A stretch of 64,000 bases of DNA from a virus, in IMG/VR virus record IMGVR_UViG_3300036766_000686, positions 27,711 through 91,710 of that record. One strand, written 5' to 3'. The notes below the pieces were generated by a model that saw only the letters and a program-made list of their open reading frames with translations, had not been told where the DNA came from and searched no databases. The position numbers and the translations under genes are program-made. Numbering within the stretch: the first letter of the stretch is position 1; each line of letters begins with the position of its first letter. Below are positions 44,338-60,658 of this stretch, in pieces.

Positions 44338-45528
44338 CTATACGCCCACGCCGATGTTGTACGCCTTGACCAGAGCGTCGGTTTCCTCGATGTTGACCGA
44401 GACCTTCGCGGTCACGACGTATTCGTTGGCGCGCTTGTGGATGTTGCGCTGTTTCTCCATGCGAATGTCCCGACCAATGCCGAGGATGAAATTCTGCATG
44501 TGGGTCAGCAGAATTTGCGGGTACGCTTTGTAGGTGACCTTCACCGTCGCGCCGTCACCGATCGCCCCGCCGCCCTTCCGATTGATCTGGCCGGTGGCAT
44601 AGTCGATTTCGTAATCGGTGTCCTTGATGTACTTCGTGGTCGGAGCGCCCGCGAGGGTGCTCGGCAAGACGACCTCTTCGGTCATGGGGGAATAGCGCAA
44701 GGTGACTTTGGTCGTACCGCTGAGGACGACGTGTTGCACGATGGACTGGTACATCGAAAGCAACGGCACCTCGACGATCGGAATACCGAACGGGGTCTGG
44801 GTCTGTCCTTCGCTCGCCGCGTCGCCTTTCGGAGTGGCGCGAGTGGCGACCTTTTCGATGTAAATCTGCGCAAGGTCGCTGGACATGAAGAACCGCAGGT
44901 TGGCTTTGTTGCGCCGGAACTTCTGGGGCATCGCTCGAATCATCGATCCGAACACGCTCAGACCGATGTTGGATCCTCCCGCGTTGACGAGGTGCGAGCT
45001 ATCGCCCGTCCTCATCCAGCCATCGAACATGGCGAGCAACGGGTCCTTGATGTATTTCGCGGTGTCGCCGTTGTCGTGGACGTCGCCTTGGATCGACGCC
45101 TGACCAACGATATCGCCGCAGAGAGCCAAGGTCTCGGCGTCGTTACGCCAGCCCGTAGCAAACATCTTGACGATATGATCCTCGACCGATTCGCCTTCCA
45201 AGGACAGTTCCTTGAACGCGTCCGAAATATCGAACGCGGCAATCACCTCTTTCGGGGTCAAGGTGATCTGTGAAGTCGAGACGCCGCTCCGCTGGTCGGG
45301 AGCGACGTACTCGGCGGCGGGCTGCATGACCCGCTTGCCGATTCCGATCTTGTCGATGTTCAATTGTTCGTTCCGAAAGCGAACCACACGGACGTTGTCC
45401 TGCAGCACCGATTCGTCCACGACGTAATCAATGAACTTGTCGGACTGGGCAGGGTTCAGTTTGCCTGAGGAGGCAAGCGCATCCGCCGCCGTGATTGCCT
45501 TTTCCCTCAACAGTTGCTCGTTATCCAT
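44338..45528 (-). CDS. Major capsid protein (HK97 fold, XkdG/P2-like) with internal beta insertion
   Basis: GKLNPAQSDKFIDYV, IDKIG, SLEG, FDGW, FGIPIVEVP, NFILGIGRDI. Confidence 0.9.
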   Translation of the reverse strand: MDNEQLLREKAITAADALASSGKLNPAQSDKFIDYVVDESVLQDNVRVVRFRNEQLNIDKIGIGKRVMQPAAEYVAPDQRSGVSTSQITLTPKEVIAAFDISDAFKELSLEGESVEDHIVKMFATGWRNDAETLALCGDIVGQASIQGDVHDNGDTAKYIKDPLLAMFDGWMRTGDSSHLVNAGGSNIGLSVFGSMIRAMPQKFRRNKANLRFFMSSDLAQIYIEKVATRATPKGDAASEGQTQTPFGIPIVEVPLLSMYQSIVQHVVLSGTTKVTLRYSPMTEEVVLPSTLAGAPTTKYIKDTDYEIDYATGQINRKGGGAIGDGATVKVTYKAYPQILLTHMQNFILGIGRDIRMEKQRNIHKRANEYVVTAKVSVNIEETDALVKAYNIGVGV

Positions 45529-45568: not shown

Positions 45569-46522
45569 CTAGATCAGGCCCTTCCAAATGTTGTCGCTCT
45601 TTGTGACGATGCCTTTGTCCGTACCGTCGCCCTCACCCTTCGGCGCGGGGCGTGTGTTCTCGATGGTCGCGAGACGCTTCTCCGTTTCCTCGAGTTTGGA
45701 TTGGAGCGGAGAGGTCGCCGCTTTGACGGCTTCCTCAATCTCGCTCTTGCTCACGGACTTGGCGGGAGTGGCAGTCGTTGCCGAGGTCCACTTGATAGAA
45801 CCGGGAAGTTCCTTGCCCACCAAGGCTTCCATGACGCCCTTGGCCGCTTCCGAGTCCACGCCAGCCAACAGTTCGAGCATTTTACGTGCCGTATCTGCAA
45901 GGCTCGCGGTGCGTTCGCTGGTGAACTGCTTCCCGCCCTTCGCCACGTCCGCGTTGATCGTGACCCGACCGTCCTCGTCAATCTCCACGAGGTTCTTCTT
46001 GGCGGGGATGGACTTCGCTTCATACCCGCATTTCTCGCACACGCCGTCCTTCATGGCACCTTTGCACTTGGGGCAAAGCTCGGGAGCGGCTTTCGTTTCG
46101 CCTTTGTTGTCGGCGGCGGCTTTCGTTGTCGCGTCCTCTTTGCAGGCGCCCGCGCTTCCCGGCGCTTTTTTGTCGGGGGTCGCTTTGGACTCGGGCGAAG
46201 GGTAGGGGTAACTCCCGCCCGCGACCTTGCCGAGAAACGACACAACCCGGGCAATCGAGTCCATGGGGACCCCATCGCCTTTTTGTTGACCCAGCCAAGC
46301 AACGCAATCCTTAATTGCCGTTGCAAGGTCGGCGGGGAGAGCCTTGTTGATTTCTTCGGACGAGCCCCCGTCCTCCCGATCTTTTTCAAACGCGCCCATA
46401 TTTTCCTCCTGTCTTTTGATGACCAGAAACTCCCGCAGAATGGCGGGGCGGTCCACGAGTGATACTTCCTTTACCATCAGGTCAAGTATTTCTCGTGGGT
46501 CCTTTGTATTCGATTCTGCCAT
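45569..46522 (-). CDS. Scaffolding protein
   Basis: N-terminal EVSLVDRPA..FLVIK, charged low-complexity body, coiled coil; directly upstream of capsid gene. Confidence 0.75.
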   Translation of the reverse strand: MAESNTKDPREILDLMVKEVSLVDRPAILREFLVIKRQEENMGAFEKDREDGGSSEEINKALPADLATAIKDCVAWLGQQKGDGVPMDSIARVVSFLGKVAGGSYPYPSPESKATPDKKAPGSAGACKEDATTKAAADNKGETKAAPELCPKCKGAMKDGVCEKCGYEAKSIPAKKNLVEIDEDGRVTINADVAKGGKQFTSERTASLADTARKMLELLAGVDSEAAKGVMEALVGKELPGSIKWTSATTATPAKSVSKSEIEEAVKAATSPLQSKLEETEKRLATIENTRPAPKGEGDGTDKGIVTKSDNIWKGLI

Positions 46523-46530
46523 GTATTTTT

Positions 46531-49500
46531 TTAGCTGGCGATCGTTGCCACTCCTCCAATTGAGAAGCCTGTTAACTTTCCAGCCTTGACGTCACTCCAA
46601 ACCTTATCACTGGTAACATGGACTGTCATTATCCACGAACCTTTTTTGACCTTCTCGTTTCCCAACGCAAACTCAGCGGGGGCAACATAGGACTCCACAA
46701 GCTCGATTCCCAGATCGCCAAAGGCGCGGTGCATCAATCCTAATTGTGTGCCGTTTTGCCCCACCGGTTTATTATAATTCATTAAGAATTTGTGGGCGGC
46801 GCGTTCGATGGTCTCGGGCTCCTCGTAATCGTGTTGGGCATCAATGACATTCGGCTCCAGTACCACCCCAGTGACTAACCTCTTTTCTTGCCCGTCCGCT
46901 CCCTTCCGCAACTCGACACGATAGACAGGAACAAAAATTTCGAAATCATAACGTTTCTCCGCGCTTTGCACTTCGGGAGCCTCCTGAGACGGAGCCCACA
47001 ACCATTGGTTACTTTGCGCGTTGCGCGTCAAAGTATAAACGCCTTTAAGCTTCTTCCCGTGGAATCGCGCTTTGATGAATGTATCGGATTGGGAAAGTAT
47101 TTCCGCGCGTCCCCTGTCCACCGCGTCAACGAAAGAAGGCGTTTCTTTGGTCGGATTTAGATAGTGCCCCGGCTTGACCACGCCCTCTATGCCCATCGAA
47201 TCCCTATGTCCGTCATGGGAAACCATCGTTGAAATTTGCTCGTTGCTCAAAGGGTCTTGAGGCATTTCGAATACCAGCAGATCGCCTACGCCCAAGTCCA
47301 CCCTGATAAACCAACGCCTGCGCGAAGGACCGAGGCGTATCTGGATTGGCCCCCGCCAAGTTTGATCTTGCAATACGAACTCCGCGTCCAGCAAGGATTT
47401 CTGCGCCCGCTTGTAAGGAGCCTCGAAATCGAGCTTGACCTCGCCCTTCGCAATCGCGTCCACGAGTGCGTCACGCATTGCCAACGCTTCCTGCCCCCGC
47501 TTGTCCCAGTATTGAAAACCTTTAGGCACTTGAACGCGAACGGCTTTAGGAAGCGCCGAGTACCCGTCCGGGGGCATCCATTTTTTGTCCACCGCTTCTT
47601 TTCCCAACACGTAAGGGGTCGGGTCGTCGGGGTAGATTGCGAGCCACGCCGCTTCATCCCCCATACCTTGATCCTCGGACGGAGGCAAAACCACGTCGGC
47701 CTTTTTCAGCAACTCTTTGGCGCAATCTAAACAGAGTAAAGCCTTGTCACCTTCCGCCCACCCTATCGCTACCGTCGCTTCGGACTCGGGGTGGGTCTCA
47801 CAACACTCGCCTTTGTTCGCAGAGTTGAAGGCAAGCTCTCGGAAAAACATACGATAGTTAAGCGCTTTGCCGTGGAAGAAATACTCATGGAACCAAGACT
47901 TTTGCGCTCCATATTCTACCGTTCCTTGATCAAGAATCAAAAATACCCCGGGGTACTGTCGAGTGCCCCCGACAGGCGGGGGTTGGCCGGGCTGAGGGTC
48001 TTTCGTCTTCCCCTCGACGTCGATCCATGCGTAAGGTTCCGGGGCCTTACGTTCGCTTTGAATTTCAGCCCGTACCAATTTATCCGTGCCTCCTTTAGGT
48101 CGCGTCGCCCACTCGCCCGTCTTCCAGTTGATCTTTTGCTTTCCATCCTCAGCAATCCATCGCCTTGCGTCCGCAAGCGACAGAATAGGGCGATCAGGAT
48201 TGCCGGGAATCTGTGTGTTAAGTGTCCATCCGGCCAGCAAGTCCTTGGGGCGCATTTCGATCCTAAGGTCATTATGAACACTCGCGCCTCGAAAATGGTT
48301 TTGCACCACATAGCGATAAGCGCCGTCCTCGGGCGGAACCTCTAGGTACGGGTCTTGTTGCTTCGCCAAGCCCTTAGCAAGGTCGGGGTAGGAATGTTCA
48401 AGCTCCATAGCCACATCGTCCGATTCCCAACGTTGCTCAAAAGCCTCCTTGACCTTTCGTTTGTCTCGCTCAGATAGCGCTTCCCATAGCGTCTTAACCT
48501 TCTTGCGCCCTTCCGACCCTAAAAATGCCGCTACTGCGCCTGACCATTCATTGGGCGGGCCAGCTTCGACCAGAAGTTCCGCGACGGTACGAGACTTACG
48601 AACGCCTTGCCCCGTGGGGCGATACGATACGTTGCCCTTTACGTCCACGTCCTTTTCTTGCAACACAAGGTCGCGCCGAGCTTGTGTCACCACCTCGTCC
48701 ACAGTGTTCGCGCCCCCATGCCCTTCCGATAGAACGCGAGGGACCCACGCTGAAATGTCAATGCCTTGAGGTGAACGCGTGAGGTTAATCGTCTCGCCCT
48801 CTATTCTCAACAGATCTCCCATTTCCAAGTCGAGGGACGTGGTAAACGTGTCGCCCATCGGCACCACGTCTTGCTCTTTTACTTGAACTATCGTTGCAGG
48901 CTTCTCGCGCCCCGGAAGCACCCCGTATTGATAGGCCCACGCGCCTCCCGCTGTTTTTTTCTTGCCGAGAATAACCGCAGTAAATACCGTGGCGTTGTGG
49001 TACTTGATCTGATAGTCAGGGTGGGTAAGGGCGAGCAAGTACGGCGCGTCCACTTGTTTGCATACAACGCCCTCCGAGCCCGGGAGCGTTCGATACTCGC
49101 GGACAACACGTTCGAGGTCGCGCGTATTGTCTACAACAACGAACGGGGCGACGTTGAGGCAATAACGTAAATCAGGCGCTCCTTTGGTCCCTTGCTTGAC
49201 TCCGAGTTTCGACAGTAAGCCAAGGCGATAGGCCGCTTCCTTGACGTGAATGTCACCCTCCTTGCCGTACCACAGGACATCGTAGATATTGCACACGAGG
49301 TTGGAATCGTCTGGAGCGCCCGTTGAGTGAATGTACCCGCTGGCGACCTCGCGGGGCATGTGTTGCGATCCCTCCCACGCCTCGATCTCCATCGGTACAA
49401 CGAGCGGGTCAACAGGAAGAGCCAGCAACTCCTTCACAACGTTGGGAAGCCGATCGGTATTATCTGTTCCGTCCTCGGAGAAAATACGCACCTTCCCATC

Positions 49501-51738
49501 CCACTTGTGCGCTTGATGGTTGGAGTTGGAAACAAGTATCTCCCCAACAAAATAGTTGTGGTTGCCTTCGACCTCTATATCAAAGCGCCCTTTAGAACGA
49601 GAAAATGAAACTCGCCTCGACCATTTGACCTTACGAGGGATTATTCCTTCGTAAGGTTCTTCGGCATGTCTCCACCCTTGACCAATGACATTAAGTCCGG
49701 TTCCGCCTAACTTATACGCCATATCTTCGCAAAACCAAGGGGCGCATTTTTGCAGAATAAGTTTTGTACCCTTACTACTAAACGCCAAATATTCGTAACC
49801 GCGAGATAGATAGATTTTAACTTCAAATCCGAAACTACAAAAATAGTTTTTGATTAGCTTATTCTCTTTCGAAGAAAACCCTTCTGTATGAAGTAACAAC
49901 CTTGGAGACTTATTCCAAGCAATAGACCCGTCGTCCATAATCCAAGCAGCCCAAGAAACCGGGGACAATTTATACAGAAAATCTTTGGTGATCGTTTTTT
50001 TGAGTGCCCCGTCCGGATGTAGTTCTTCCCAGATTTCCAGTAATCCAACGTCGGAGCGCGAGTCCCACCTTACTCCGGGGTGCCCAAACTGAGATATCCT
50101 CGGCTTAATCTCGCCTCCTAAAACGCCAAGCAATCTCGATTTCCATTCCAAATACGCCTGTTGCTTTATCGAGTGAGAAATAGAGACATACGGAGACTGA
50201 GATTCTTTTTGACGAGGTAAAGACGTATCCCCCATTAAAGAACCACGCAAAAAATCCTCCCTTTCCTTTCCAAGAACACTTCCGCGAACACAAACAAGAT
50301 CGTTGGCTTTAATGTCGGATGCGTTTTGTTTTGTGCCTGATGCGGTGTAAATACCGTGATTGCCCGTACAGGTAAGCATCCGCCTTCTTCCGTTTTCGCC
50401 AGAGCATCCAAATGAGGTGTACTCATGGCACGAACCGTTAGTAAACCAATTTGTTACCGGCTTCCACTCAACTCTCTTTGTTTCCCAGTTATACGATTTA
50501 ACTTTTACTTTCAACCGAGCATTTACAATCTCCCCTATCGGCAACGAACCTCTGTTCGTTTCGATCTTTGTTCGATACGGAAAACACCCGTCATACTTTT
50601 TTTGAACTAAAGTCGGTAACCACTCGTCCTCGTTCTCCTCGAATAGCGTTATGAAGTTTTCGACGGTCTGAGGCTGATCGGGGTATTCGGGACGGTAGGG
50701 TTTCATCATTGGGAAAAACTTGCCCAGCGTGATCCCCTCGACCTTTCCTACGCTGAAATAACGAGACGCGAACGCCCCGTCCTCCTCGTCCAATTTTGCA
50801 ATCGCCATCTGTGTCAAGAATTCGTACCCCTTGCGGGAGTTCGCTTTGTAATACTCCCACAAGGATTGCAGGTACTTTTCCATCTCTCGAAAATTGAAGC
50901 GACGCCGATCCACTTCATTATCAAGATCAAGCTTCCATTGCTTCGCCAACTTTGAGACGGCTTCAGGAGCCTCACGACCACGCCCCACCGCGTACCCCGA
51001 GCAACGCGGAGGCATTCCTTCTGCTTTCGGCTCGCGGCTCAACATCACGCGCCCGTACCCGCCCGCGATAAAAATGGACGCGGCGTCGAAGGACTTGATC
51101 ACATCGAAATAGGGTAGAAACTTGCGCAGTCTCGAACCTACGCCTAAAAGGTGAATGTCGTTTAGAGGAGGAACCTTGGCCAACTTGTACCGCTCACTCA
51201 CGCGGTTCGCAATCGCGGTCCACTGCGCGGGGGTCATAAATTGAATCGTGTACCCCGCGGGCATTTTCTTTTCCAAATGCCAATCGCCCATCGGGGTTTT
51301 CTCCCCCGCGAGAAACCCCGCCCAACACAAGCGCCCCCCGTCCTTGTACCAAGACTGAGCGTGGGTATGTACCTTGAACCACATATGGTCAACGACGATC
51401 GGAGACAGACCTGATTCCTTCATCTTGAGGTAGTGGTTGACCGTGACCTTCGTCTCCAGAGGGTCGTCGAGGACGATATATTCATCAAACAATTCCTTAT
51501 GCTCGTTGAGCCATCGCACGTACCCGTCCAATGTCACCGAGCCCGGGTGGGCGATATTCGAGTGGGCGCCTGAATCGAGAATAAACTTGACCCCGTTCTT
51601 AACGCCTTTCTCGATTCCCTCCAGATACCCCGCGCCTCTGCGCGCGTAGGCGTAGGAAACGAGGATGTGCTTTGCACCTTCTTCCATCAAGAAGTGGATT
51701 CGGTCAGGGTTGTTGGCGACGTAATAACAGTTAAACAT
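46531..51738 (-). CDS. Polyprotein: TGT/DpdA-like + ATP-dependent ligase (intein) + LigD 3'-phosphoesterase-like domain(s) + XkdF-type prohead protease
   Basis: ILDSGAHS/LDD/IHLLG/SFDAAS; QKKYDG, YDVL, SEGVVCK, QIKYH; VVQNHFRG..HNDLRIE; VTGVVLEP..DAQHD..AAHKF..GSW..LTGFSIGG. Confidence 0.82.
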   Translation of the reverse strand: MFNCYYVANNPDRIHFLMEEGAKHILVSYAYARRGAGYLEGIEKGVKNGVKFILDSGAHSNIAHPGSVTLDGYVRWLNEHKELFDEYIVLDDPLETKVTVNHYLKMKESGLSPIVVDHMWFKVHTHAQSWYKDGGRLCWAGFLAGEKTPMGDWHLEKKMPAGYTIQFMTPAQWTAIANRVSERYKLAKVPPLNDIHLLGVGSRLRKFLPYFDVIKSFDAASIFIAGGYGRVMLSREPKAEGMPPRCSGYAVGRGREAPEAVSKLAKQWKLDLDNEVDRRRFNFREMEKYLQSLWEYYKANSRKGYEFLTQMAIAKLDEEDGAFASRYFSVGKVEGITLGKFFPMMKPYRPEYPDQPQTVENFITLFEENEDEWLPTLVQKKYDGCFPYRTKIETNRGSLPIGEIVNARLKVKVKSYNWETKRVEWKPVTNWFTNGSCHEYTSFGCSGENGRRRMLTCTGNHGIYTASGTKQNASDIKANDLVCVRGSVLGKEREDFLRGSLMGDTSLPRQKESQSPYVSISHSIKQQAYLEWKSRLLGVLGGEIKPRISQFGHPGVRWDSRSDVGLLEIWEELHPDGALKKTITKDFLYKLSPVSWAAWIMDDGSIAWNKSPRLLLHTEGFSSKENKLIKNYFCSFGFEVKIYLSRGYEYLAFSSKGTKLILQKCAPWFCEDMAYKLGGTGLNVIGQGWRHAEEPYEGIIPRKVKWSRRVSFSRSKGRFDIEVEGNHNYFVGEILVSNSNHQAHKWDGKVRIFSEDGTDNTDRLPNVVKELLALPVDPLVVPMEIEAWEGSQHMPREVASGYIHSTGAPDDSNLVCNIYDVLWYGKEGDIHVKEAAYRLGLLSKLGVKQGTKGAPDLRYCLNVAPFVVVDNTRDLERVVREYRTLPGSEGVVCKQVDAPYLLALTHPDYQIKYHNATVFTAVILGKKKTAGGAWAYQYGVLPGREKPATIVQVKEQDVVPMGDTFTTSLDLEMGDLLRIEGETINLTRSPQGIDISAWVPRVLSEGHGGANTVDEVVTQARRDLVLQEKDVDVKGNVSYRPTGQGVRKSRTVAELLVEAGPPNEWSGAVAAFLGSEGRKKVKTLWEALSERDKRKVKEAFEQRWESDDVAMELEHSYPDLAKGLAKQQDPYLEVPPEDGAYRYVVQNHFRGASVHNDLRIEMRPKDLLAGWTLNTQIPGNPDRPILSLADARRWIAEDGKQKINWKTGEWATRPKGGTDKLVRAEIQSERKAPEPYAWIDVEGKTKDPQPGQPPPVGGTRQYPGVFLILDQGTVEYGAQKSWFHEYFFHGKALNYRMFFRELAFNSANKGECCETHPESEATVAIGWAEGDKALLCLDCAKELLKKADVVLPPSEDQGMGDEAAWLAIYPDDPTPYVLGKEAVDKKWMPPDGYSALPKAVRVQVPKGFQYWDKRGQEALAMRDALVDAIAKGEVKLDFEAPYKRAQKSLLDAEFVLQDQTWRGPIQIRLGPSRRRWFIRVDLGVGDLLVFEMPQDPLSNEQISTMVSHDGHRDSMGIEGVVKPGHYLNPTKETPSFVDAVDRGRAEILSQSDTFIKARFHGKKLKGVYTLTRNAQSNQWLWAPSQEAPEVQSAEKRYDFEIFVPVYRVELRKGADGQEKRLVTGVVLEPNVIDAQHDYEEPETIERAAHKFLMNYNKPVGQNGTQLGLMHRAFGDLGIELVESYVAPAEFALGNEKVKKGSWIMTVHVTSDKVWSDVKAGKLTGFSIGGVATIAS
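49525..50586 (-). mobile_element. Intein in ligase motif I (354 aa) with in-frame LAGLIDADG endonuclease
   Basis: KYDG|CFPYRTKI; CTGNH; GSLMGD and WIMDDG; ends FDIEVEGNHNYFVGEILVSN|S. Confidence 0.92.
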
Positions 51739-52846
51739 TTTGTAACTCCATGCACCACCGAACTATCTCGGCAAGGCTCTTTTCATATTTCAACGCGTGT
51801 CCTCTCACGGAGAACGGGAACGCGATGGCGTCCTCTATCAATCGCACTTGTTCCTCCAAGTCATGCGCCTCAAACATACAACGCCTTTCTCCATCCAAAA
51901 GCTGAGGGTGGGAAAAACCAAAGGGAACAATTGGTATTGTATCCAATGCCATCGCTTCCAGCACACAATAACCAAAGTTTTCCTCGATCGTATTGCTGAC
52001 CATGACCTTCGCTCGTGAAAGAAGGCAAAGGTACTCGCGCTTCGAAATGCCTTCCCGTATCTCGATTACCCCCCGCCTTTGAAGTTCCAACGCTCTCTCT
52101 CTCAGTTCCCCCGCCCCCCACTGCCTCCTACTTGTCGTGACAAGGAAACGCCAATCAGGGTGCCGAAGTTTCAAGGACTCGAAAACTGTTAGCGACACCC
52201 CGGGGCGTTTCTCGAAATCAGGACGATTGGTTAATATTATTAGGTTCTCCTTCGCTCCATTCTGCGCTCCTACAAGCTCCCCAAGCTCCCCGAGCTTGTA
52301 TGGGTTGCCGGAAACGACGATCTTGGAATCTGGGACGCCCCTGCGCTCCGCAAGCTGCCCCTTGTGATACTCAGAGCCAACGAATAGCAGGTCAAACACC
52401 GCTCCCCACCCTCGCTCATAGTGTCGAGCGAACGGAGCACACTTTTCCATGAAGTCCTCACGCGTATAGGAACCGGCGTGAACGAACCCCGCCATCTTGA
52501 CGTCCACTCCGTTCAACGTCGCCAAGTACCTGATCGATTCAATGCCCCAGAACTCCACGTCCGCAACAAAAAACAAGTCCTTGTTTTTGATCGTTCCTTC
52601 GTGAAACAACCTCGCAACTTTCCTCAACTGTGTTGCCTTGTAGTGGAGCGTGGAGTTGACGTCGAGGAACGTTCCTACTTGAATCTCGTTGCTAAGCGCC
52701 TCTCCGTCAATCGTCCTGCACTCGGCTCTCTGTCGAGCAAACTCCTCGGGGAACCAGCGGTACCACTGCTCCGTGTATCGTTCGTCAAGAGGTTCAATAG
52801 GTAGGTACCAGATCACCTTCCACCTCGCTTGCAAACCCAAATCCAA
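51731..52846 (-). CDS. GT-B (GT4-like) glycosyltransferase
   Basis: NRPDFEK, EENFGYCVLEAM. Confidence 0.85.
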   Translation of the reverse strand: MDLGLQARWKVIWYLPIEPLDERYTEQWYRWFPEEFARQRAECRTIDGEALSNEIQVGTFLDVNSTLHYKATQLRKVARLFHEGTIKNKDLFFVADVEFWGIESIRYLATLNGVDVKMAGFVHAGSYTREDFMEKCAPFARHYERGWGAVFDLLFVGSEYHKGQLAERRGVPDSKIVVSGNPYKLGELGELVGAQNGAKENLIILTNRPDFEKRPGVSLTVFESLKLRHPDWRFLVTTSRRQWGAGELRERALELQRRGVIEIREGISKREYLCLLSRAKVMVSNTIEENFGYCVLEAMALDTIPIVPFGFSHPQLLDGERRCMFEAHDLEEQVRLIEDAIAFPFSVRGHALKYEKSLAEIVRWCMELQNV

Positions 52847-53325
52847 CTTCCCCCTCTTATTCTACCTCGAACCTCAACCGCTCGTGACAAGTAAAACCTC
52901 GATTCCGAAAGAAATCTGAGGACGTTTATTTTACAGTCCCTATTCGCCGTGATCACCAACACCCCGCCGCGTCTCGTTATTTCGTAAGCTCGATAGATCG
53001 CCTGCGCCACTTCGTGTTCGCTATTCAACCCATACCCTATCAACCCAACCATTAGAACGTTATCGAAGGGAACGACGGGGTAGAAATCTTGCAGCTTTAC
53101 CACCCTGTGTTGTTTCATCCCGTAGACCGATCGCTCGGGTTCGCAGTCAATCGACTCCGCGCCCTCGGGGAAGTGCTCGGGACGGGTATGCCAGTCCACG
53201 CCTACGACCAACGTCGCCCCGCGCAACTGGGCGTAGATTGCTCGCAGGACACGACGTTCCGAGGGCTCCCAGATTCCTGCCCGCCACAACTGCACCCAAA
53301 ACCATTCGCTCAGTCTATTCCACAT
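52813..53325 (-). CDS. Class I SAM-methyltransferase-like protein (divergent)
   Basis: TLVVGV, FDNVLMVGLIGY, TRRGGVLVIT; start set to ATG 53325. Confidence 0.55.
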   Translation of the reverse strand: MWNRLSEWFWVQLWRAGIWEPSERRVLRAIYAQLRGATLVVGVDWHTRPEHFPEGAESIDCEPERSVYGMKQHRVVKLQDFYPVVPFDNVLMVGLIGYGLNSEHEVAQAIYRAYEITRRGGVLVITANRDCKINVLRFLSESRFYLSRAVEVRGRIRGGSWIWVCKRGGR

Positions 53326-54073
53326 CACAACCATTCTCCCCGTCCTCGTACAAGGACACACGGACGAGACGATCGGGAAAAGTAATTTCGAGTTGTCGCT
53401 TGATATGTCGCGCCGCCGCCTCGCAGGACATGCCGCGGGGTCGCTCCCATTTCGTCTCCAACATATCGTTCACGATATCCCGGACCTTCGCGCGTAAAAT
53501 AAAATACTCCAGTTCTCTATCTCCCTCGAACTGCTGGACGCGGGCGCGGACGTGAAAAATATGCCGATGCGGAAAACGCAAAAACCCGACCTCGTCCGGC
53601 GCCTGCTCCCATGCGTGAAACTCCTCGAACTTCCAACCCACACTCGCCCAAGTGATTTCGTCAAAAGGTTGGACACTTCGAAAAAGCCAATACTTGTGAT
53701 CCACCAGCCTCTCGCGCTCACGCGGGTAAAGCTCGCGGAACAACGCTTCCTTTTCACGAGGGCGCAATTCTTCCTCAAGCCACGGCGTGTTCATTTCCAC
53801 CGAGTAGTACATCAATCGAGCGGGGAGCAGGAGTCCGATCCTGCGCACCAAATGGTGAAGCGGGTGCAGGTCGAAGCGCGAAGGAACGAACACTGTATCC
53901 CCCGCCACGATGCGCCCCACGCTATCCGCTTCCCACTTAGAGTAACGCGGATCCGCCTTTATCGCGTCCACTCTATAATCGTCCGTGAAATAGAAAATAC
54001 GATCGATCGTGTCCAAGACGTGAAAACAACCGATCACTTCGTCGTCCAGATGTGGTGCGAGAATATAACGCAT
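53315..54073 (-). CDS. PIG-L/LmbE-like deacetylase fused to QueD-like T-fold domain (DpdL-like)
   Basis: APHLDDEVIG and HPLH; C-terminal FHAW..FLRFPHRHIF..SCE..VSLYEDGENG. Confidence 0.7.
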   Translation of the reverse strand: MRYILAPHLDDEVIGCFHVLDTIDRIFYFTDDYRVDAIKADPRYSKWEADSVGRIVAGDTVFVPSRFDLHPLHHLVRRIGLLLPARLMYYSVEMNTPWLEEELRPREKEALFRELYPRERERLVDHKYWLFRSVQPFDEITWASVGWKFEEFHAWEQAPDEVGFLRFPHRHIFHVRARVQQFEGDRELEYFILRAKVRDIVNDMLETKWERPRGMSCEAAARHIKRQLEITFPDRLVRVSLYEDGENGCDVE

Positions 54074-54075
54074 AA

Positions 54076-54684
54076 CTACAACCCCAACAGGCGCAACGCC
54101 TCGTCCCGCCCCCGATGGTCCTCAAGCCAGTCGCCAAGTATTGCGCTTGTCCTCATAACGGAGTGCGGTTGTTGTACCCCTCGCGCAACCATGCACATGT
54201 GGGTTCCTTCGACGATCACCGCAACCGCACGGGGAGAGATCGCCTGATCGATCGTCTCCGCAATCTGTCGGGTCATGCGCTCTTGTATCTGCAATCTTCG
54301 CGCCACATGATTCGTTATCCGTGCGAGCTTCGAAGCACCCAAGACGTGTCCAACGCCATCTTGCGACACGGCGGGCAGGTAGGCGATATGGCATTGCCCA
54401 AAAAAGGGCATCATGTGGTGCTCACAAAAGGAGAAATAGTCGATCCCTTTGATTGCCACAACCTCGTCGTAGGTTTCATCGAACACGCGAATTTGCCCGC
54501 CGATATCCTCAGTATACCCCGCGAACAACGTCTCCCACGCTTTAACCACGCGCTTCGGAGTATCACGAAGCCCTTGCCTGTCGGGGTCGTCTCCGATGAG
54601 CGTGATCAACTCGCGGATAAGACGCTCCGCGCGTTCCCTCTTGCCTACATCAACTGCTCCCACGTATTCTGCCTCCATTGTCAA
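54076..54684 (-). CDS. folE: GTP cyclohydrolase I
   Basis: GLRDTPKRV, CEHHMMPF, SKLAR, RLQIQER, HMCMVARG. Confidence 0.95.
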   Translation of the reverse strand: MTMEAEYVGAVDVGKRERAERLIRELITLIGDDPDRQGLRDTPKRVVKAWETLFAGYTEDIGGQIRVFDETYDEVVAIKGIDYFSFCEHHMMPFFGQCHIAYLPAVSQDGVGHVLGASKLARITNHVARRLQIQERMTRQIAETIDQAISPRAVAVIVEGTHMCMVARGVQQPHSVMRTSAILGDWLEDHRGRDEALRLLGL

Positions 54685-54702
54685 CTCCTTGCCTCCTTCA
54701 GT

Positions 54703-55350
54703 TCATTTAATTTTCCAAACCTTGTGTTGTTGCACCGATAGACGAAGCCTCGGGTTATCTTTTACTTTTTCTATGCACCACGCCAGCGCTGCCTCGTCAA
54801 TCTCATTGCCTCGCGTTGCTGGAGAAACGTAAACGAGGGCGGCGGGGGAAATTGGCAACATAGGCTCAAGGACTTTTTGTCCCGTGGTGATTACGAACCT
54901 GACCTCGTCTGCCCTCTTGATCACTTCGTCCCTCAGCGGGTGACGAGTGGGGAACTTGGGAGAGACCGAAACCCAATCTAGTTCGGCGGGAGGAAGTTTG
55001 ACTGTGCCGTTCGTCTCGATTGCGATATACTCGAAATACTCTCTAAGCGTCTCCAGCAATTTGCCATCGACTTGCAACGTAGGTTCGCCCCCCGTCAACA
55101 ACAGGGCGCGATTATCGTACCCTCCCGACACACGAATCCCATCCGTAATGATTTCAGAGGCGGTAAGGCTGTCGCATTTACTGTGGTCGGTATCGCAATC
55201 GAAGCCCCCGGGCGATAGCGGGCCGGGTTGCATACGGCAACGAAGGTTACACCCCGCAAAGCGAACGAATACAAAAGGTCGCCCCGCGTTCGCTCCCTCG
55301 CCCTGCAAGGAATAGAATATTTCGGATATGCCGTAGCGCTTCGCCTTCAC
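54703..55350 (-). CDS. queE: 7-carboxy-7-deazaguanine synthase (radical SAM)
   Basis: EIFYSLQGEG, FVRFAGCNLRC, CDT, LTGGEP, IETNG, VSPK, LSVQQHK; GTG start overlaps queD stop. Confidence 0.92.
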   Translation of the reverse strand: MKAKRYGISEIFYSLQGEGANAGRPFVFVRFAGCNLRCRMQPGPLSPGGFDCDTDHSKCDSLTASEIITDGIRVSGGYDNRALLLTGGEPTLQVDGKLLETLREYFEYIAIETNGTVKLPPAELDWVSVSPKFPTRHPLRDEVIKRADEVRFVITTGQKVLEPMLPISPAALVYVSPATRGNEIDEAALAWCIEKVKDNPRLRLSVQQHKVWKIK

Positions 55351-55793
55351 CCCGTCACCTCCGCTTTGCTGTCCTCTGTTTCCCACACCGTTACTTTCGA
55401 TACGCTGATCCACGGCATGTCCGCAAACAACTTCCGAGACACGTCAAGCAATAACGCTGCCATCTCCTCTGCGGTTGGGTTCGACAACATTGGGTACTCC
55501 TTAGTGTCCAGAGGCACGTTCCCCGAAATCGTGGGCAACGTGAGCCCCAACGGCGAGTCCTCTTGGTGGCGTAGATACGCATGGTCCCAAAACGAATCGA
55601 GCCACGCGCCTATTCGCGCTTTGATCTGGGAGAAATCAACAACCATTCCCGTTGTCTCATTCACGCCCCCGTCTATTCTACGCAACGAGACCTCAATCTT
55701 GTATTCGTGCCCGTGAACGTTAAAGCATTTTCCTTCATGAAATCTCAGCCTGTGCGCCGCACTTATTCGAAATATCTTGGTAACGGTTATCAT
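55347..55793 (-). CDS. queD: 6-carboxy-tetrahydropterin synthase
   Basis: AAHRL..KCFNVHGH, VVDF, DH, NPTAE, VWET. Confidence 0.92.
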   Translation of the reverse strand: MITVTKIFRISAAHRLRFHEGKCFNVHGHEYKIEVSLRRIDGGVNETTGMVVDFSQIKARIGAWLDSFWDHAYLRHQEDSPLGLTLPTISGNVPLDTKEYPMLSNPTAEEMAALLLDVSRKLFADMPWISVSKVTVWETEDSKAEVTG

Positions 55794-55819: not shown

Positions 55820-57268
55820 TTAGTCGTCCTCAAAGGATTTTTGCATCGCCAAAAAGTACCCTTCTTCGCGTTCGTCCAACGGTTCATCCTCCGCGGACTT
55901 CTCAATCGCAAGACGCATTTCCTTGACCTCGTTGTTTGTCGAACGTTCCAAAACTAGATCGAATAACTCCATGTGGTTCGTGAACGGCCCGCGCTTTCGG
56001 TCATAGTGAATGGACAAGCGCTTCGCCACGTCTCCCGATAACGCTCGTCCCAAACGAAACGCCAACACTTCCTTGAGCCAATCGGGAACGTTCGTCTCCT
56101 CGTCGTTGACAAGGATATCAATGTCACCTTCCGTCTCTCCGTGATTGGCCAACCCCCCAACCAACATCACGTAAGGCGTCCTAACCTTGAACGTCTTGAA
56201 GTTGTCCACCACGTCGTTGATCTTGATCAAGGGACCAAGCTTGTTCCCGGAGTGACGGATATCCATGTACTCGCCCTTTTCCGTTGCCTTCGCTTCAAAG
56301 TCTGCGGACATTTCGTCCAGCCCCGTATCGGGCGGAGGCGGGTGTTTTTCGCCTCTCGCTCTCAACTCGTCCACGACCCTCGCGTGCATATTCACCACGT
56401 CCTCGACGCTCCAGCCGTCCCGCTCTTCCAAATACATGCGGTGCAGTTCATCGTGGGCTTGGCAAAGCCAATCGAGTGACTGCGCGGTAGGGTCGGAATC
56501 GACGTCGAAAACAAATTGGGATTTATACATCGTAGCGGGTACGTTTGCCTCGTTTGCCGTTTCCATAAAAAACCTCCTCACGCTTGTTTTCATCCCCTTC
56601 GGATCGAAGCTCACCACACCTGGCCCCCGTTTCACAAGTTCTTTTAATACCACCACCAACAAGCGCTTGATAGTTGCTAGATCGTAACGGAACCCGCTCG
56701 GGTTTTTGCGCCATGTTGAGTACCACGCCAGCAGTATGCGCATATCGTCCCGCAACTGCGCGTCCGTCATTTCGGCGGGGTTATAGGAGTTTACATCATG
56801 TATCTTGGACAGCCCCTCCACCTGAACGTCTCGCACCGTTACCTGAGGTCCGCTTCCCACGTTCGTCCTCAAGGGGCTATCGAACTTGTCCAGCACTTTA
56901 ACGTTCCAGCAATACAGCGTTCCTTGTTTCCAAGAAGGCTGAGCCTCTGCCCATTGCGCTCTAAGCTCAGAGGTTATTAAGTGTTGCGGCTCAGTTGCGG
57001 CAAACTCCTCATTGCCCATTTCCTTCATCGGGCCAAGATGCACCACGCCAAGCGCCTGACGTTGACTAACAAGAATAAAGTCCTTGTTTGAAATCTCAAA
57101 AGGCTTGGTCTTAACGATCAACGTTTTCCTGCCGTCGATAACCGCGCGAGCCATAAACGAAGGCGACAAGATCAATCCATCGTGAACGTTCAAAGCGGAA
57201 CTCCCGATGGTTGCAGGAGACAGTTTCCCGCCCGTTGCCAACGCGTCACTTGTGATCGCCTTATTCAT
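55820..57268 (-). CDS. Multidomain protein: capsid-like N-terminal peptide + ASCH-like domain + helical domains + Pol-beta-type minimal nucleotidyltransferase
   Basis: AVIDGRKTLIVK..ALGVVHL..LYCW (ASCH); VMLVGGLANHGETEGDIDILV (hGG..DxD). Confidence 0.7.
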   Translation of the reverse strand: MNKAITSDALATGGKLSPATIGSSALNVHDGLILSPSFMARAVIDGRKTLIVKTKPFEISNKDFILVSQRQALGVVHLGPMKEMGNEEFAATEPQHLITSELRAQWAEAQPSWKQGTLYCWNVKVLDKFDSPLRTNVGSGPQVTVRDVQVEGLSKIHDVNSYNPAEMTDAQLRDDMRILLAWYSTWRKNPSGFRYDLATIKRLLVVVLKELVKRGPGVVSFDPKGMKTSVRRFFMETANEANVPATMYKSQFVFDVDSDPTAQSLDWLCQAHDELHRMYLEERDGWSVEDVVNMHARVVDELRARGEKHPPPPDTGLDEMSADFEAKATEKGEYMDIRHSGNKLGPLIKINDVVDNFKTFKVRTPYVMLVGGLANHGETEGDIDILVNDEETNVPDWLKEVLAFRLGRALSGDVAKRLSIHYDRKRGPFTNHMELFDLVLERSTNNEVKEMRLAIEKSAEDEPLDEREEGYFLAMQKSFEDD

Positions 57269-57530
57269 TGATCGGTTCCTCCGTTGTTGAAGTCTTGCCG
57301 TGTTGCTCCATAAAAGCGTCTTGTTGCGTCTCCAATTTTAGGTCCAACTCCTCGAATCTGTTGGCATCAAATAGCAAGCTAAGGCACTTAACGTATTGGG
57401 TATCCGTCATATCGCCTCGTTCCTTCAACACCTCTGCCGATAGTTCAAGTATACGCTCCACCGTCCACGACGGGTCGCGGGTGGATTCCTCAAGGCGATA
57501 CGCCGCCGTACCTTTTTTGGGATCGCTCAT
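57261..57530 (-). CDS. Hypothetical acidic protein
   Basis: ATGA overlap with MuF stop. Confidence 0.6.
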   Translation of the reverse strand: MSDPKKGTAAYRLEESTRDPSWTVERILELSAEVLKERGDMTDTQYVKCLSLLFDANRFEELDLKLETQQDAFMEQHGKTSTTEEPINE

Positions 57531-60500
57531 AGCACCCTCAATTTCGACAGTGCGTCCTGTAACGCTACCTTTTGCTCCCTCGTAAGCTCAGCATTTCCCG
57601 GCAACAACTCGATAAACATTCTAGGCGCATTGTAGTGGGACGCGATGGTTGAGGCAGCGCTGGTACTCATCAGGTGGGAGGCTCGCTCGATTTCGGTCCA
57701 CGCTCGTTCCTTGGCCCACCCCGTCGCCTTCGTGACCGAATTAACTAGATCGTCGATTACCTGACCGTAGGAACGTGACATTGTAAAAATAGATTCCCCG
57801 GCAGGGAACTTGTGCCCAGTAATATCGACAAGAATTTTCCGAGCCGTGATCTCCGTGGATGCCTCACACAACGCCTTTCCTTCGAAATTGTAAGCGCTGG
57901 AAAGGAGACGATTGGAACCGTGGACGGACTCGTGAATGAAGGTAAAAAAGCCCCCATCCCTCATTGTCCCGTTACTTGTTGCTCCTATGCTCGCGGACAT
58001 ATCATCAAAGCGCTTGCCCCTGAGCGTGATCCCCTCGAACCCGTCTCGCCATCCGTTATATTTTCGCGTCCGAGCGTTCCTCTCTATCAAGTCCCTCCGC
58101 GCACCTCCAGTGCGGCTAGGCTCTAAAGACAAACCCCACTGTTTCTCAAAAAAGTCCTCCGTGTTTCGACGAAACTGCGGGAAATCAAACTTGCTAATTT
58201 TTTTCTTCTTATTGCTCGCAAGCGTTTGGTCCCACAGCGTCTTAAACTTCTTGACCTCTTGTTGCAAAACTTCAGGAGCAGCAGGAGTAGGCAAAAGGGG
58301 AATCGGACGCGGAGGAATATAGTTCGACAAGGGTGCGGCGGGGATTACAGCAACAGGCGCCTCAACAGGGACGGCGGCGGGTGCTTCAATAGGTAAAGCC
58401 ACAGGAGGTTCGATTGGGATGGAAACGGGGGGAGCGATCGGGGGTGCTGGAGGGGGGGCAACCGGAGGACGAGGGGCGACAACTGGAGTGCCGGGGATCC
58501 TCGATACCACATCAATGCTACAACGACAGTTATGTACCGCAAATAGTTGTTCACCAACTAAGAAACTCTCATCCTCTTCGACGGTAAGATTCCAGACCAC
58601 TCTATGACTGGAAAATCTTTGAATAAACCCAATAGGAACAAACCCAATTTCTGAAAATGAGAAGGGGTCACATAGATTAAGTGTTCTGGAAATAGCTCTT
58701 GTATAAGATGATCCCTCGGTTTGAACCATCCTTTGACCTCTATCCAAATTTTCCGTCTCGGCAAAAAGAAATCCGGAAGGTATGTTAAGTCCGGGGTCAA
58801 ATAGAAACGTTGGCACTCGTAAAGAAAAGGTTCCTGCAAGGTTAATAATTCTTTGGCTAACTTGTCTTCCCAAGTGCTTCGCAATCTTAACGTACCTTGC
58901 CAAGGTGTCTCCAACGTAGACCAACGCCCGTGCCCAGGCTTTTTGCCAAACATGGGATTTTTTGCACCGGAAAATTGTCCCTTCCTCGCCCCACCTCTGG
59001 GACCACAACCCAATCTCTTCCATCGTTTCGTTCGACAGCCCAGCGAACACGTAAAAATATTTTCTGAATGACACGGAGTCCGCCAAAACTTTTTTCCACA
59101 TTCGGAACAAGCAACGTATTCCCCTTTTATATGGGATATTCTCTTGCACTCGCTGGAACAATAGTGAAACCGATCCTTCTGAAAAGAAGGAATCAAAACT
59201 ATTTTCCCACATTGAGCGCAACGCGCTTGAACCTTCGCGGAGGCAGGCCCCCTCATGGAGCCAGCGCGCGCCCGATTCGCCAACATATATTCGCGAGAAC
59301 AAGACTTCTTCGTTCCGATTCGCGACGGCATTACCATAATGATCTTGCCGCAATTCGCGCAATGGGATGTTACACGGGTTAACTTTTCCAACGAGATCGT
59401 CCTCGATGACTGCACTAAAGATATTACACCCGTCACGGCGAATCAAATAAGGATGGTCCGCTGTCGAAATTATCCCCTCGATGTTTATGAAATCCCCAAG
59501 AAAATCCCTGGACATCACGTTAGAAACTTTTTTCCAACGCAACTTGTGAGTTAAAACCTCGTCTCCAACGCGGATGCTACTTATAGGAATCAAACCTCGA
59601 CGGGACAAGACAGGGGTAGACCCGATAAAACAGTTTAGGTGGAAGGGGGGCAACGCGTTCCCATTCTCTTCCAACTTGCTTGTCAAAGAAGGACCCATCG
59701 GTCCTCGCGCTCCCCCGACAAGCGACAGCGTATCGGATATTGATAGGAAGGGTTGTATTGTCCGTATGCTGGTAGGGTTTTTCGCGCCCAGTATTCGGTT
59801 CGCCAAAGCGCTTCCATCTGCGACCTTGAACCGCTTCCCGTCCAATATCTCGCACCTATCACAGGTCCGTTGGTCTTTCGGATTGACGATTCGATACTCC
59901 GTATACCCTGCGCGCCGCATGACGTTCACACTCGAAATCGCCCGAGACGTCGTTGCGGCGTTGCTCACAAGCCCTTCGAAGTATCGAGCTTGTGTCCCGT
60001 TAAATCCCTTCGGTACGGTGACTTGTGATAGCGTTCGCCCCACCAAGCGCTCCAGCGCCCGCCCCGCCACTTCGTTTGACCTACCTTGCTCCATCACAAA
60101 CTTTTTCGTGGTGGAGGCGATAGCGTTGCCCACGTTTGCCGAGTAATGCTCTCCGATCCAATAAGTTTGATGCTTACCCAAGACGTTCATCGCCGCCTTG
60201 TCTTGCAACCCAAAACCCACACGCAAATTAGGAGGGGGCTCGGCTTTCGTGACCGTCCCCGTGTCCCACTCGCCTATCGGGTACTCAATGGGAGCCTTCA
60301 TCTTGCCCGATATGCGAGCCTGCATTACCTCGAAGGACAGTTTGTAGATCGCCCGCATATCCCTAGTAAATCGTTCCTCGACGATTCCCGCCCACTGTTC
60401 CATCGTCTTTCCTATGCCATTGGAAATCGTCTCCGCGTCCTTATCCGTAAGATCGCCCTTCATCGCCATGAAGCGTTCCCGCGCTTCCCTCGCTGCCTTT

Positions 60501-60658
60501 TTCGCAAGCTGTTCCCACTGAGCCAGCAGGTACTCGCGGAGTTTCGTCTCAATACGAGCGGACTGGGCTAACGCATCCACGCCAATCGACTTAGCGACAA
60601 GATCGTCCAGCAGCCTTACCCCATCGTAGAGGGCATCAATTGTGAGCGTGTCCCGCAT
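57527..60658 (-). CDS. Head morphogenesis protein (SPP1 gp7/Mu gpF) with intein and C-terminal HExxH domain
   Basis: DQRTCDRCEILDG, PPFHLN|intein|CRC; follows portal; Pro-rich linker then FIHESVH..E. Confidence 0.88.
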   Translation of the reverse strand: MRDTLTIDALYDGVRLLDDLVAKSIGVDALAQSARIETKLREYLLAQWEQLAKKAAREARERFMAMKGDLTDKDAETISNGIGKTMEQWAGIVEERFTRDMRAIYKLSFEVMQARISGKMKAPIEYPIGEWDTGTVTKAEPPPNLRVGFGLQDKAAMNVLGKHQTYWIGEHYSANVGNAIASTTKKFVMEQGRSNEVAGRALERLVGRTLSQVTVPKGFNGTQARYFEGLVSNAATTSRAISSVNVMRRAGYTEYRIVNPKDQRTCDRCEILDGKRFKVADGSALANRILGAKNPTSIRTIQPFLSISDTLSLVGGARGPMGPSLTSKLEENGNALPPFHLNCFIGSTPVLSRRGLIPISSIRVGDEVLTHKLRWKKVSNVMSRDFLGDFINIEGIISTADHPYLIRRDGCNIFSAVIEDDLVGKVNPCNIPLRELRQDHYGNAVANRNEEVLFSRIYVGESGARWLHEGACLREGSSALRSMWENSFDSFFSEGSVSLLFQRVQENIPYKRGIRCLFRMWKKVLADSVSFRKYFYVFAGLSNETMEEIGLWSQRWGEEGTIFRCKKSHVWQKAWARALVYVGDTLARYVKIAKHLGRQVSQRIINLAGTFSLRVPTFLFDPGLNIPSGFLFAETENLDRGQRMVQTEGSSYTRAISRTLNLCDPFSFSEIGFVPIGFIQRFSSHRVVWNLTVEEDESFLVGEQLFAVHNCRCSIDVVSRIPGTPVVAPRPPVAPPPAPPIAPPVSIPIEPPVALPIEAPAAVPVEAPVAVIPAAPLSNYIPPRPIPLLPTPAAPEVLQQEVKKFKTLWDQTLASNKKKKISKFDFPQFRRNTEDFFEKQWGLSLEPSRTGGARRDLIERNARTRKYNGWRDGFEGITLRGKRFDDMSASIGATSNGTMRDGGFFTFIHESVHGSNRLLSSAYNFEGKALCEASTEITARKILVDITGHKFPAGESIFTMSRSYGQVIDDLVNSVTKATGWAKERAWTEIERASHLMSTSAASTIASHYNAPRMFIELLPGNAELTREQKVALQDALSKLRVL
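58529..59632 (-). mobile_element. Intein in MuF (368 aa), no in-frame endonuclease
   Basis: Starts CFIGSTPV..IPISSIRVGDEVLTH; block B STADHP; ends VVWNLTVEEDESFLV..AVHN followed by Cys+1; removal restores PPFHLN-CRC. Confidence 0.92.
58558..59436 (-). CDS. PD-(D/E)XK endonuclease with three zinc-finger repeats and NUMOD3-like motif, nested in the +1 frame of the MuF intein
   Basis: CxxCGK..CS..C x3; GAKNPMFGKK; RSTWE..YE..YLPDF..WIEVKG; alternative start TTG 59391 with GAGGA 8 nt upstream. Confidence 0.85.
   Translation of the reverse strand: MTGVISLVQSSRTISLEKLTRVTSHCANCGKIIMVMPSRIGTKKSCSREYMLANRARAGSMRGPASAKVQARCAQCGKIVLIPSFQKDRFHYCSSECKRISHIKGEYVACSECGKKFWRTPCHSENIFTCSLGCRTKRWKRLGCGPRGGARKGQFSGAKNPMFGKKPGHGRWSTLETPWQGTLRLRSTWEDKLAKELLTLQEPFLYECQRFYLTPDLTYLPDFFLPRRKIWIEVKGWFKPRDHLIQELFPEHLIYVTPSHFQKLGLFLLGLFKDFPVIEWSGILPSKRMRVS

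Follow-up and report, generated by a model that had tools for sequence, protein, structure and literature searches.

We identified in the genome of an uncultured phage a 1735-amino-acid (aa) polyprotein, P0001, that joins a DpdA-family barrel, an ATP-dependent DNA ligase carrying an intein, two phosphoesterase (PE) modules (PE module 1 and PE module 2) and, at its C-terminus, an XkdF-type prohead protease. The gene lies on the minus strand at positions 46531–51738 (stop codon included) of a 64,000-nucleotide (nt) stretch of DNA (the window), which covers positions 27,711 to 91,710 of the IMG/VR virus record IMGVR_UViG_3300036766_000686 (91,710 bp, estimated completeness 91%). The best reading overall, and the one toward which we lean, is that P0001 is an intein-interrupted ‘polyvalent’ head protein that loads enzymes into the capsid. 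A first-pass annotation of the same DNA had proposed that the protease acts as a carrier. This idea is supported indirectly by the C-terminal position of the protease behind varied cargo, its status as the sole prohead protease in a 91%-complete genome, the location of the gene before those for the scaffold and capsid, and the modelled docking to the scaffold, whereas entry of the cargo into the head, its release, its survival through maturation and its ejection are predictions.

Protease domain and reading frame

P0001 is encoded in one ATG-to-TAA frame that is open for 1743 codons from stop to stop. A GGAG sequence lies 7 nt 5' of the ATG, and the first 8 nt of the gene are shared with the end of the upstream glycosyltransferase gene. 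Homologues whose alignment begins at residue 1 (e.g., P0060) support the same start. Profiles, AlphaFold2 (AF2) models and alignments detected every domain that the first-pass annotation had placed in this single frame. The earlier parse was thus correct for the domains that it named, but it overlooked a 354-aa LAGLIDADG intein in the ligase. It had also located the gene between MuF and the scaffold and capsid genes. P0001 does immediately precede the genes for the scaffold and capsid but is not adjacent to MuF: seven genes lie between them, coding for an ASCH/nucleotidyltransferase (NTase) protein, QueD, QueE, FolE, two unknown proteins and the glycosyltransferase.

The C-terminal residues 1617–1735 (46534..46890) form the core of an XkdF-type (Peptidase_S78_2) prohead protease, in agreement with the first-pass annotation. 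The domain scores 96.7 bits against PF14550 (cut-off, 24; E 1.3e-27), matches the ‘head maturation protease’ family PHROG 3017 (E 4e-35), and aligns in fold with T4 gp21 (5jbl; Z 8.6, root-mean-square deviation (rmsd) 4.0, 124 aligned residues). Two candidate catalytic residues, H1670 and S1726, are 56 residues apart. S1726 is kept in all of the XkdF-bearing relatives and H1670 in nearly all, consistent with a putative catalytic pair. As judged from the sequence, the XkdF domain of P0001 is the phage’s only recognizable prohead protease. No further XkdF, S78 (PF04586) or ClpP-type (PF00574) protease was found in the record; a search with PF03420 was uninformative, as its control failed to score. 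No cleavage sites could be called in P0001: lysine followed by alanine, serine or glycine is seen at a few boundaries (aa 1308 and aa 1446) and at the capsid N-terminus, but also within folded domains.

The linker between PE module 2 and the protease contains an AGGAGG sequence followed, after an 8-nt spacer, by an in-frame GTG at V1590 (46969–46985, minus strand), which would yield a free 146-aa protease. We rejected it as a conserved internal start. This start is not kept in the relatives L002 and L003, AGGAGG occurs six times in the open reading frame, and the arrangement is probably due to chance.

Predicted scaffold peptide contact

Ordinary XkdF proteins carry the protease core and the scaffold in one chain. 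For example, gp30 of Streptomyces phage Gilson (444 aa) has the core, then a ‘..ELSLVDSPAN..’ peptide, and then the scaffold, and gp33 of Lactococcus phage 28201 (350 aa) has a like peptide N-terminal to the core. Both proteins share with P0001 the core motifs ..GVV.EP..DA.GD.. and ..GFS.GG.., a gene located before the capsid gene, and a ‘VSLVD.PAN’-type peptide. However, they hold core, peptide and scaffold together and have no cargo, whereas in the P0001 family a stop codon immediately after the core parts it from the next gene, which opens with a ‘..KEVSLVDRPA..’ peptide and continues into the scaffold. In the window, this scaffold gene (45569..46522, minus strand) starts 8 nt past the P0001 stop and neighbors the capsid gene.

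The N-terminal peptide is the best-conserved part of the scaffold, with 14 invariant residues in positions 10–37 among four relatives. In L021–L024 it is the sole detectable part of the scaffold (61% identity). A complex model of the protease domain with the scaffold, built with a shallow scaffold alignment of four rows, gave an ipSAE interface score of 0.75 compared to 0.11 for the best of three controls. In the calibration of this score, 58 of 80 solved complexes attained this value, compared with 2 of 110 mismatched pairs. Model runs agree in at least 69% of contacts, and the predicted local distance difference test (pLDDT) score of the partner is at least 44. The modelled interface places scaffold residues 7 and 9–26 against the last (C-terminal) strand of the protease, beside S1726, and defines a predicted docking peptide at scaffold residues 7–26 (46445–46504, minus strand). 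The model therefore predicts that the scaffold peptide binds the protease domain in trans, which would be a concrete route into the procapsid. It is also consistent with the complementation of a split domain, by which P0001 would be held on the scaffold while the head assembles.

We also considered a −1 frameshift or readthrough from P0001 into the scaffold and rejected it. The scaffold start codon, 8 nt past the TAA, lies in the −1 frame, but upstream of it this frame runs for only about 19 codons before it closes, and it contains no slippery heptamer. In relatives, the polyprotein and scaffold genes overlap by 4 or 14 nt or are separated by 300 nt. The scaffold protein itself contains a ‘GGxYPYPxP’ motif and, internally, an insert that resembles a zinc ribbon (CPxC...CxxC). 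L003 shares the zinc ribbon; L002 and L004 lack it and have the YPYP motif in duplicate.

Fusions in related phages

A word-indexed search returned about 58 relatives of 1000–2100 aa with ligase, PE and XkdF parts and an N-terminal domain of the Dam, Dcm, 2H or DpdA-like type. Some of these long relatives are ordered PE-ligase-XkdF, and some are without XkdF. The first-pass annotation had called for a survey of N-terminal cargo on XkdF-family proteins. Run with the protease domain, it found varied enzymes on 191 longer proteins with the XkdF type of P0001, the fusion partners being Dam, Dcm, uracil-DNA glycosylase, 2H, ligase or DpdA-like domains. Throughout these fusions, which extend over hundreds of metagenomic proteins, the protease domain invariably forms the C-terminus. 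Direct fusions of DpdA to XkdF account for 12 of the 48 proteins of the DpdA clade. Matches of the XkdF domain to a Lactococcus ‘DNA methyltransferase’ were discarded as a cargo fusion: the protein is an ordinary 350-aa protease-scaffold protein, and its name is an annotation artefact.

The fusion recurs in a conserved genomic context. A scan of IMG/VR for loci with close DpdA relatives (narrower alignment, A4) returned 21 loci, and DpdA and XkdF share one open frame in 17 of them; one further locus is cut by a contig end. FolE, QueE or QueD is present in 20 of the 21 loci, directly upstream of the fusion where there is one. The order of genes is portal, MuF, the QueD/QueE/FolE cassette, polyprotein, scaffold and capsid, and L002, L003 and L004 have the same gene order. 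The middle of the polyprotein varies between loci and may hold nothing (proteins of 560–680 aa), PE only, ligase and PE, or ASCH/NTase together with PE and ligase.

Base exchange module

The N-terminal domain (aa 1–320; 50779..51738) belongs to the DpdA family of DNA-guanine transglycosylases, and its limits are close to those of the barrel that the first-pass annotation had placed at about aa 1–300 and had likened to tRNA-guanine transglycosylase (TGT) and DpdA. An AF2 model built on relatives found with HMMER has a pLDDT of 88, and the best 50 Foldseek matches of this model are all tRNA-guanine transglycosylases. VIA-align superimposes it on the archaeosine TGT 1iq8 (Z 18.7, rmsd 3.5, 269 aligned residues) and on DpdA, the DNA preQ0 insertase 7ui4 (Z 17.6, rmsd 3.2, 257 aligned residues), which has the highest identity (16%). 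Furthermore, 7ui4 is the sole sequence match (E 6.5e-10) of the family profile against the whole Protein Data Bank (PDB).

The profile alignment to 7ui4 (chain numbering +20) equates D55, D91, H118 and D218 of P0001 with Asp95, Asp130, His181 and Asp256 of Salmonella DpdA. Experiments with the Salmonella enzyme assigned an acid/base role to Asp95, the role of nucleophile to Asp256, and base recognition to Asp130 and His181 (PMC10164549). All four residues are invariant in the narrower alignment (A4). In a broader alignment (A1), D218 is invariant and D55 and D91 are conserved in at least 90%. The predicted activity of the P0001 N-terminal domain is the exchange of guanine for a 7-deazaguanine in DNA. 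Neither the domain nor any of its 48 relatives (exhaustive HMMER set) has a match in Pfam, whereas the ‘queuine tRNA-ribosyltransferase’ family PHROG 887 matches it and 47 of the 48 relatives, and PHROG 7068, of the same name, matches 29 of the 48. A tblastn search found no match to the domain among 50,697 deposited phage genomes, and it is therefore a member of an uncultured DpdA clade.

Just upstream of P0001, in the same strand run, is a cassette for the synthesis of 7-carboxy-7-deazaguanine (54076..55793, minus strand) composed of FolE (54076–54684), QueE (54703–55413) and QueD (55347–55793). No QueC was seen within the window. We infer that the cassette supplies the base to the DpdA domain. 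Salmonella DpdA (7UI4) and phage DpdA1–4 likewise combine a TGT-type barrel, an acid/base Asp, a nucleophile Asp and a base-recognizing Asp and His with adjacent FolE/QueD/QueE genes. Unlike them, the P0001 domain is fused to a head protease and has no match to the Pfam TGT family. No protease fusion or head-module location was mentioned in the DpdA literature that we searched.

The glycosyltransferase gene (51731–52846) and a gene for a 252-aa unknown protein (53315–54073) accompany the cassette and the DpdA fusion in several relatives (L020–L025, L032) at 50–65% identity; L020 has the glycosyltransferase alone of this pair. Their co-travelling suggests a further modification of the base.

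DNA ligase

The ATP-dependent ligase with a KYDG motif reported in the first-pass annotation is supported by a PF01068 match of 30.6 bits (cut-off, 26.2). Homologue alignments and profiles divide it into an N-extein (aa 332–384; 50587..50745), which ends in motif I (K381-Y-D-G384), and a C-extein (aa 739 to about 1045; 48604..49524), which contains the remaining adenylation domain and an OB-like part. The family profile aligns across adenylation motifs III, IIIa, IV and V to the archaeal/Lig1-type ligases 3rr5 and 2cfm (E 1e-21) and reaches only E 2e-5 against the mycobacterial LigD ligase. The alignment ends where the OB domain begins, leaving the motif VI region uncovered. Motif V reads K-x-H rather than K-x-K throughout the family. 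A poorly conserved linker or small domain follows the ligase (aa 1046–1136; 48331..48603), and only P0041 matches this stretch. No second ATP-dependent ligase and no second DpdA was found in the 91.7-kb record.

Between the exteins is an intein of 354 aa (aa 385–738; 49525..50586), delimited with profiles and intein-less homologues and inserted directly 3' of motif I. Its first residue is Cys385, its last is Asn738, and Ser739 is the +1 residue. It has ‘TGNH’ at block B and a Ser instead of His as the penultimate residue, and it scores 18.5 against the intein profile TIGR01443 (cut-off, 15.6). Within it, aa 496–658 (49765–50253) form a LAGLIDADG_2 homing endonuclease (PF03161, E 8.5e-21; PDB 6x1j, E 5.8e-6). 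The intein is common to P0001, P0002 and P0004, and six homologues (P0003, P0005, P0006, P0007, P0008 and P0013) have an insert-free KYDG-A-(N/R)HQ sequence. The intein interrupts the ligase after motif I, and the enzyme would therefore be inactive until splicing.

A related intein (31.5% identity over aa 375–742) is present in the ‘intein-containing RNA ligase’ of Pseudaeromonas phage KLEP7 (OM654377, 92120–93250), and related inteins may home into motif I of different ligases. Two other genes of the window have similar elements: a LAGLIDADG_3 domain in the large terminase (62393–63976) and a Hint domain in the MuF protein (57527–60658). Together with the ligase intein, they make the phage look unusually intein-rich.

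Putative end-healing modules

The first-pass annotation had described one clear and one degenerate LigD 3'-phosphoesterase-like module, a distinction that holds at the level of motifs; the motif-less PE module 2 is the copy with the textbook fold. PE module 1 (about aa 1137–1308; 47815..48330) has H1148, H1155, D1157 and R1159 in the canonical Q-x-H...H-x-D-x-R-x-E context and aligns with the archaeal PEs 3p4h and 3p43. The His/His/Asp/Arg set is nearly invariant in 42 relatives. These residues would correspond to the catalytic and metal residues of the Pseudomonas aeruginosa LigD PE, which we take to be His42, His48, Asp50 and Arg52. PE module 1 also has a conserved ‘RKAPEP-aromatic-AW..VEG’ sequence, whose register against the second half of LigD (His84/Tyr88 equivalents) was judged by eye. 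Based on its motif, PE module 1 is probably an active 3'-phosphoesterase.

PE module 2 (aa 1451–1586; 46981..47388) has the canonical PE fold without the metal-binding His/His/Asp. It reads Q..Q.R.G at the His/His/Asp/Arg positions, so the metal ligands are lost, and has an invariant GHYLNPTK sequence. In PDB searches with a model of aa 1124–1735 (pLDDT 84), the only strong matches are LigD PE domains (Foldseek E about 1e-4), all of which map to PE module 2. VIA aligns this module to 3p43 over 119 of 124 residues (Z 15.8, rmsd 2.1 Å, 25% identity) and to the P. aeruginosa LigD PE with a Z of 13.6. The PE family profile finds 3p4h and 3p43 by sequence (E 2e-6). For PE module 1, support for the PE fold is indirect and comes from hhalign, which relates it to PE module 2 with 84% probability (E 7e-6). 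The curated PE models were not reached (TIGR02777, 15.6 bits against a cut-off of 144; no Pfam LigD_N match at E up to 1).

The two modules are separated by a Cys4 zinc-ribbon-like element and a conserved helical region (aa 1309–1450; 47389..47814), most of which is modelled with a pLDDT above 90. It has weak B-box-like structure matches only and belongs to no recognizable family. Structure searches gave no separate match for PE module 1 or for the zinc-ribbon and helical region; PE module 2 fills the match lists, and the searches thus give no sign of new folds. The region between the modules includes a strongly conserved and confidently modelled ‘PPSE..WLAI.PDD.TPYVL..KKWMPP.G.SALP’ sequence.

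The ligase and PE-PE unit is also found free-standing, without a protease. It is present in L001 (ANMV-1 virus, which is a virus of ANME-1; KP703175, 3200–5800) and in L010–L018, mainly in archaeal metagenome-assembled genomes (Methanosarcinales, Archaeoglobales and Thermoprotei). One Planctomycetota contig matches ligase-PE-PE at 41% identity.

Working model and alternatives

In the capsid-loading reading that we favor, P0001 would be made late, from the head operon. The intein would splice itself out and restore ligase motif I (step 1), and the DpdA domain would swap guanine in progeny DNA for the 7-deazaguanine base from the FolE/QueD/QueE cassette (step 2). The protease core, which lacks the scaffold tail of ordinary XkdF proteases, would bind the N-terminal peptide of the separately encoded scaffold (step 3). 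As a consequence, P0001 would co-assemble into the procapsid and pull an enzyme train of about 150 kDa along with it. After assembly, the protease would cut the scaffold and probably the flexible linkers, and the enzymes would stay in the head with the DNA (step 4). At the next infection they would exit together with the DNA; nicks or breaks would then be healed and sealed by the active PE and the ligase, and incoming or freshly made DNA would be the substrate of DpdA (step 5). Steps 1–3 (splicing, base exchange and scaffold docking) are moderately supported, and steps 4–5 (cleavage and retention, ejection and repair) are proposed by analogy only. In T4, targeted cargo is processed by the prohead protease. 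The role against host nucleases after injection that the first-pass annotation had raised is pure conjecture, and the data would be explained equally well by action on progeny DNA, either ahead of packaging or in the course of it, because the DpdA of P0001 is the only one of the phage.

Several observations weigh against capsid loading. Ligase-PE-PE relatives that lack a protease are found in the ANMV-1 virus and in assemblies of archaea, Planctomycetota and Elusimicrobiota, and the unit therefore works without capsid targeting. As the phage has no other DpdA, this one must modify the progeny DNA while still in the producing cell, before or during packaging, and the fusion therefore need not serve delivery. 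At about 150 kDa for each copy of the protease, the cargo would fill much of the head volume, and the docking is a prediction from a four-row scaffold alignment. The first two points keep a packaging-coupled role and a plain expression device in contention. If coupled to packaging, the enzymes would be tethered in the procapsid and would act on the genome as it enters rather than being delivered. DpdA (or Dam, Dcm and uracil-DNA glycosylase in relatives) would modify the entering DNA, and PE, ligase and the NTase of relatives would mend nicks or abasic breaks from abortive exchange, and the head would thereby close only on genomes that are intact and modified. The location of the deazaguanine pathway in the late head operon beside the fusion (20 of 21 loci), the presence of the genome’s only DpdA in P0001, and the resemblance of the cargo set (glycosylase-type enzyme, NTase, 3'-phosphoesterase and ligase) to a base-excision-repair kit are consistent with this alternative. 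Yet methyltransferases, which do not break DNA, are also found joined to this ligase-PE unit; base, S-adenosylmethionine and ATP would all need to enter the capsid interior; and densely packed DNA is a poor substrate. We also know of no precedent for base modification coupled to packaging inside a procapsid, and we regard this explanation as unlikely. More doubtful still is the proposal that 7-deazaguanine hypermodification is coupled to head assembly in this phage clade, with DpdA tethered via the split protease/scaffold contact, a built-in excision-repair kit, and the capsid as a DNA reaction chamber.

Alternatively, the fusion could simply co-express late enzymes with the protease. The enzymes would be freed in the cytoplasm, or degraded or expelled at maturation, and would work in the producing cell only. 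Free-standing ligase-PE and DpdA relatives exist (L032, L039 and L040), and the in-frame GTG at V1590 could provide a free protease, but this start is not conserved and its AGGAGG sequence is one of six in the frame. Furthermore, prohead proteases such as those of HK97 and T4 are normally active only within the assembled shell. The strict C-terminal position of the protease and the location of the gene just before the scaffold across very different cargos also point to a structural reason for the fusion, and we consider a mere expression device improbable, to about the same degree as packaging-coupled chemistry. Least likely by far is an artefact in which a missed frameshift or stop or a chimeric assembly joins separate genes. 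No sign of such an error was found: the frame is unbroken over its whole length, dozens of independent contigs, which come from different samples, have collinear fusions, and the domain junctions are conserved at 45–60% identity.

Comparison with described proteins

The closest parallel to a loaded multi-enzyme head protein is the group of phage ‘polyvalent proteins’ (Iyer et al., 2017; PMC5512222). Like P0001, they have many enzymatic domains per chain, are encoded with portal, terminase and MuF genes, and carry a peptidase of the assemblin fold at the extreme C-terminus. Their assemblin-like peptidases are always C-terminal and ‘rather limited in their distribution’, and their 2H domains were never seen with RNA ligases (Iyer et al., 2017; PMC5512222). 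Packaging and processing have been proposed for them, as we propose for P0001. Unlike the polyvalent proteins, P0001 has a cargo of base-exchange enzyme, DNA ligase and PE, a link to a deazaguanine cassette, and a predicted docking to a scaffold peptide. We found no DNA ligase, LigD-PE, TGT/DpdA or XkdF in the text of that study (PMC5512222). Nor was the fusion described in the literature that we searched on XkdF and ligase, on DpdA and protease or capsid, and on deazaguanine and head protease. To these descriptions the locus adds the conserved link between DpdA, cassette and head protease, the intein in ligase motif I and the predicted scaffold-peptide docking.

The end-healing plus sealing logic of P0001 recalls bacterial LigD and the archaeal stand-alone PEs (3n9b, 3p43, 3p4h and 5dmp), which share with it the 3'-phosphoesterase fold and an ATP-dependent ligase. 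Unlike LigD, P0001 has no polymerase domain, its ligase is nearer to the archaeal/Lig1 type, and its PE is duplicated into a module 1 with the motif and insertions and a compact module 2 without the ligands. Head-borne enzymes that reach the host cell along with the DNA include T4 Alt and internal proteins, P1 Dar proteins, the N4 virion RNA polymerase and MuF-fused effectors (background partly in PMC5512222). These systems use a short targeting sequence, a fusion to MuF or portal, or Dar partners, whereas in P0001 the protease domain itself would be the anchor.

If the cargo rides in the head, the N-terminus of a prohead protease would be a modular attachment point through which nearly every kind of nucleic-acid enzyme could be delivered; those seen include methylases, a base-exchange enzyme, a glycosylase, ligase and end-healing enzymes. 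DpdA could then be a virion component, and the integration of the whole deazaguanine pathway into the head operon would have a bearing on the time and place of the modification. The predicted docking of core and scaffold peptide is a small interaction that could be reused as a capsid-loading tag. The ligase/PE pair hints at an as yet unstudied means of countering host defences, the resealing of nicked or cut incoming DNA.

Other genes of the head operon

The major capsid protein gene (44338..45528, minus strand) neighbors the scaffold gene, and its product is only about 30% identical to capsid proteins of Streptomyces phages. On the other side of the cassette is a gene for a 482-aa protein (55820..57268, minus strand), labelled ‘ASCH + NTase’ in the first-pass annotation. 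It shares 37–48% identity with a module located inside the DpdA...XkdF polyproteins of L026, L027 and L037. The first 18 or so residues of the 482-aa protein resemble the N-terminus of the major capsid protein after ‘K|A’.

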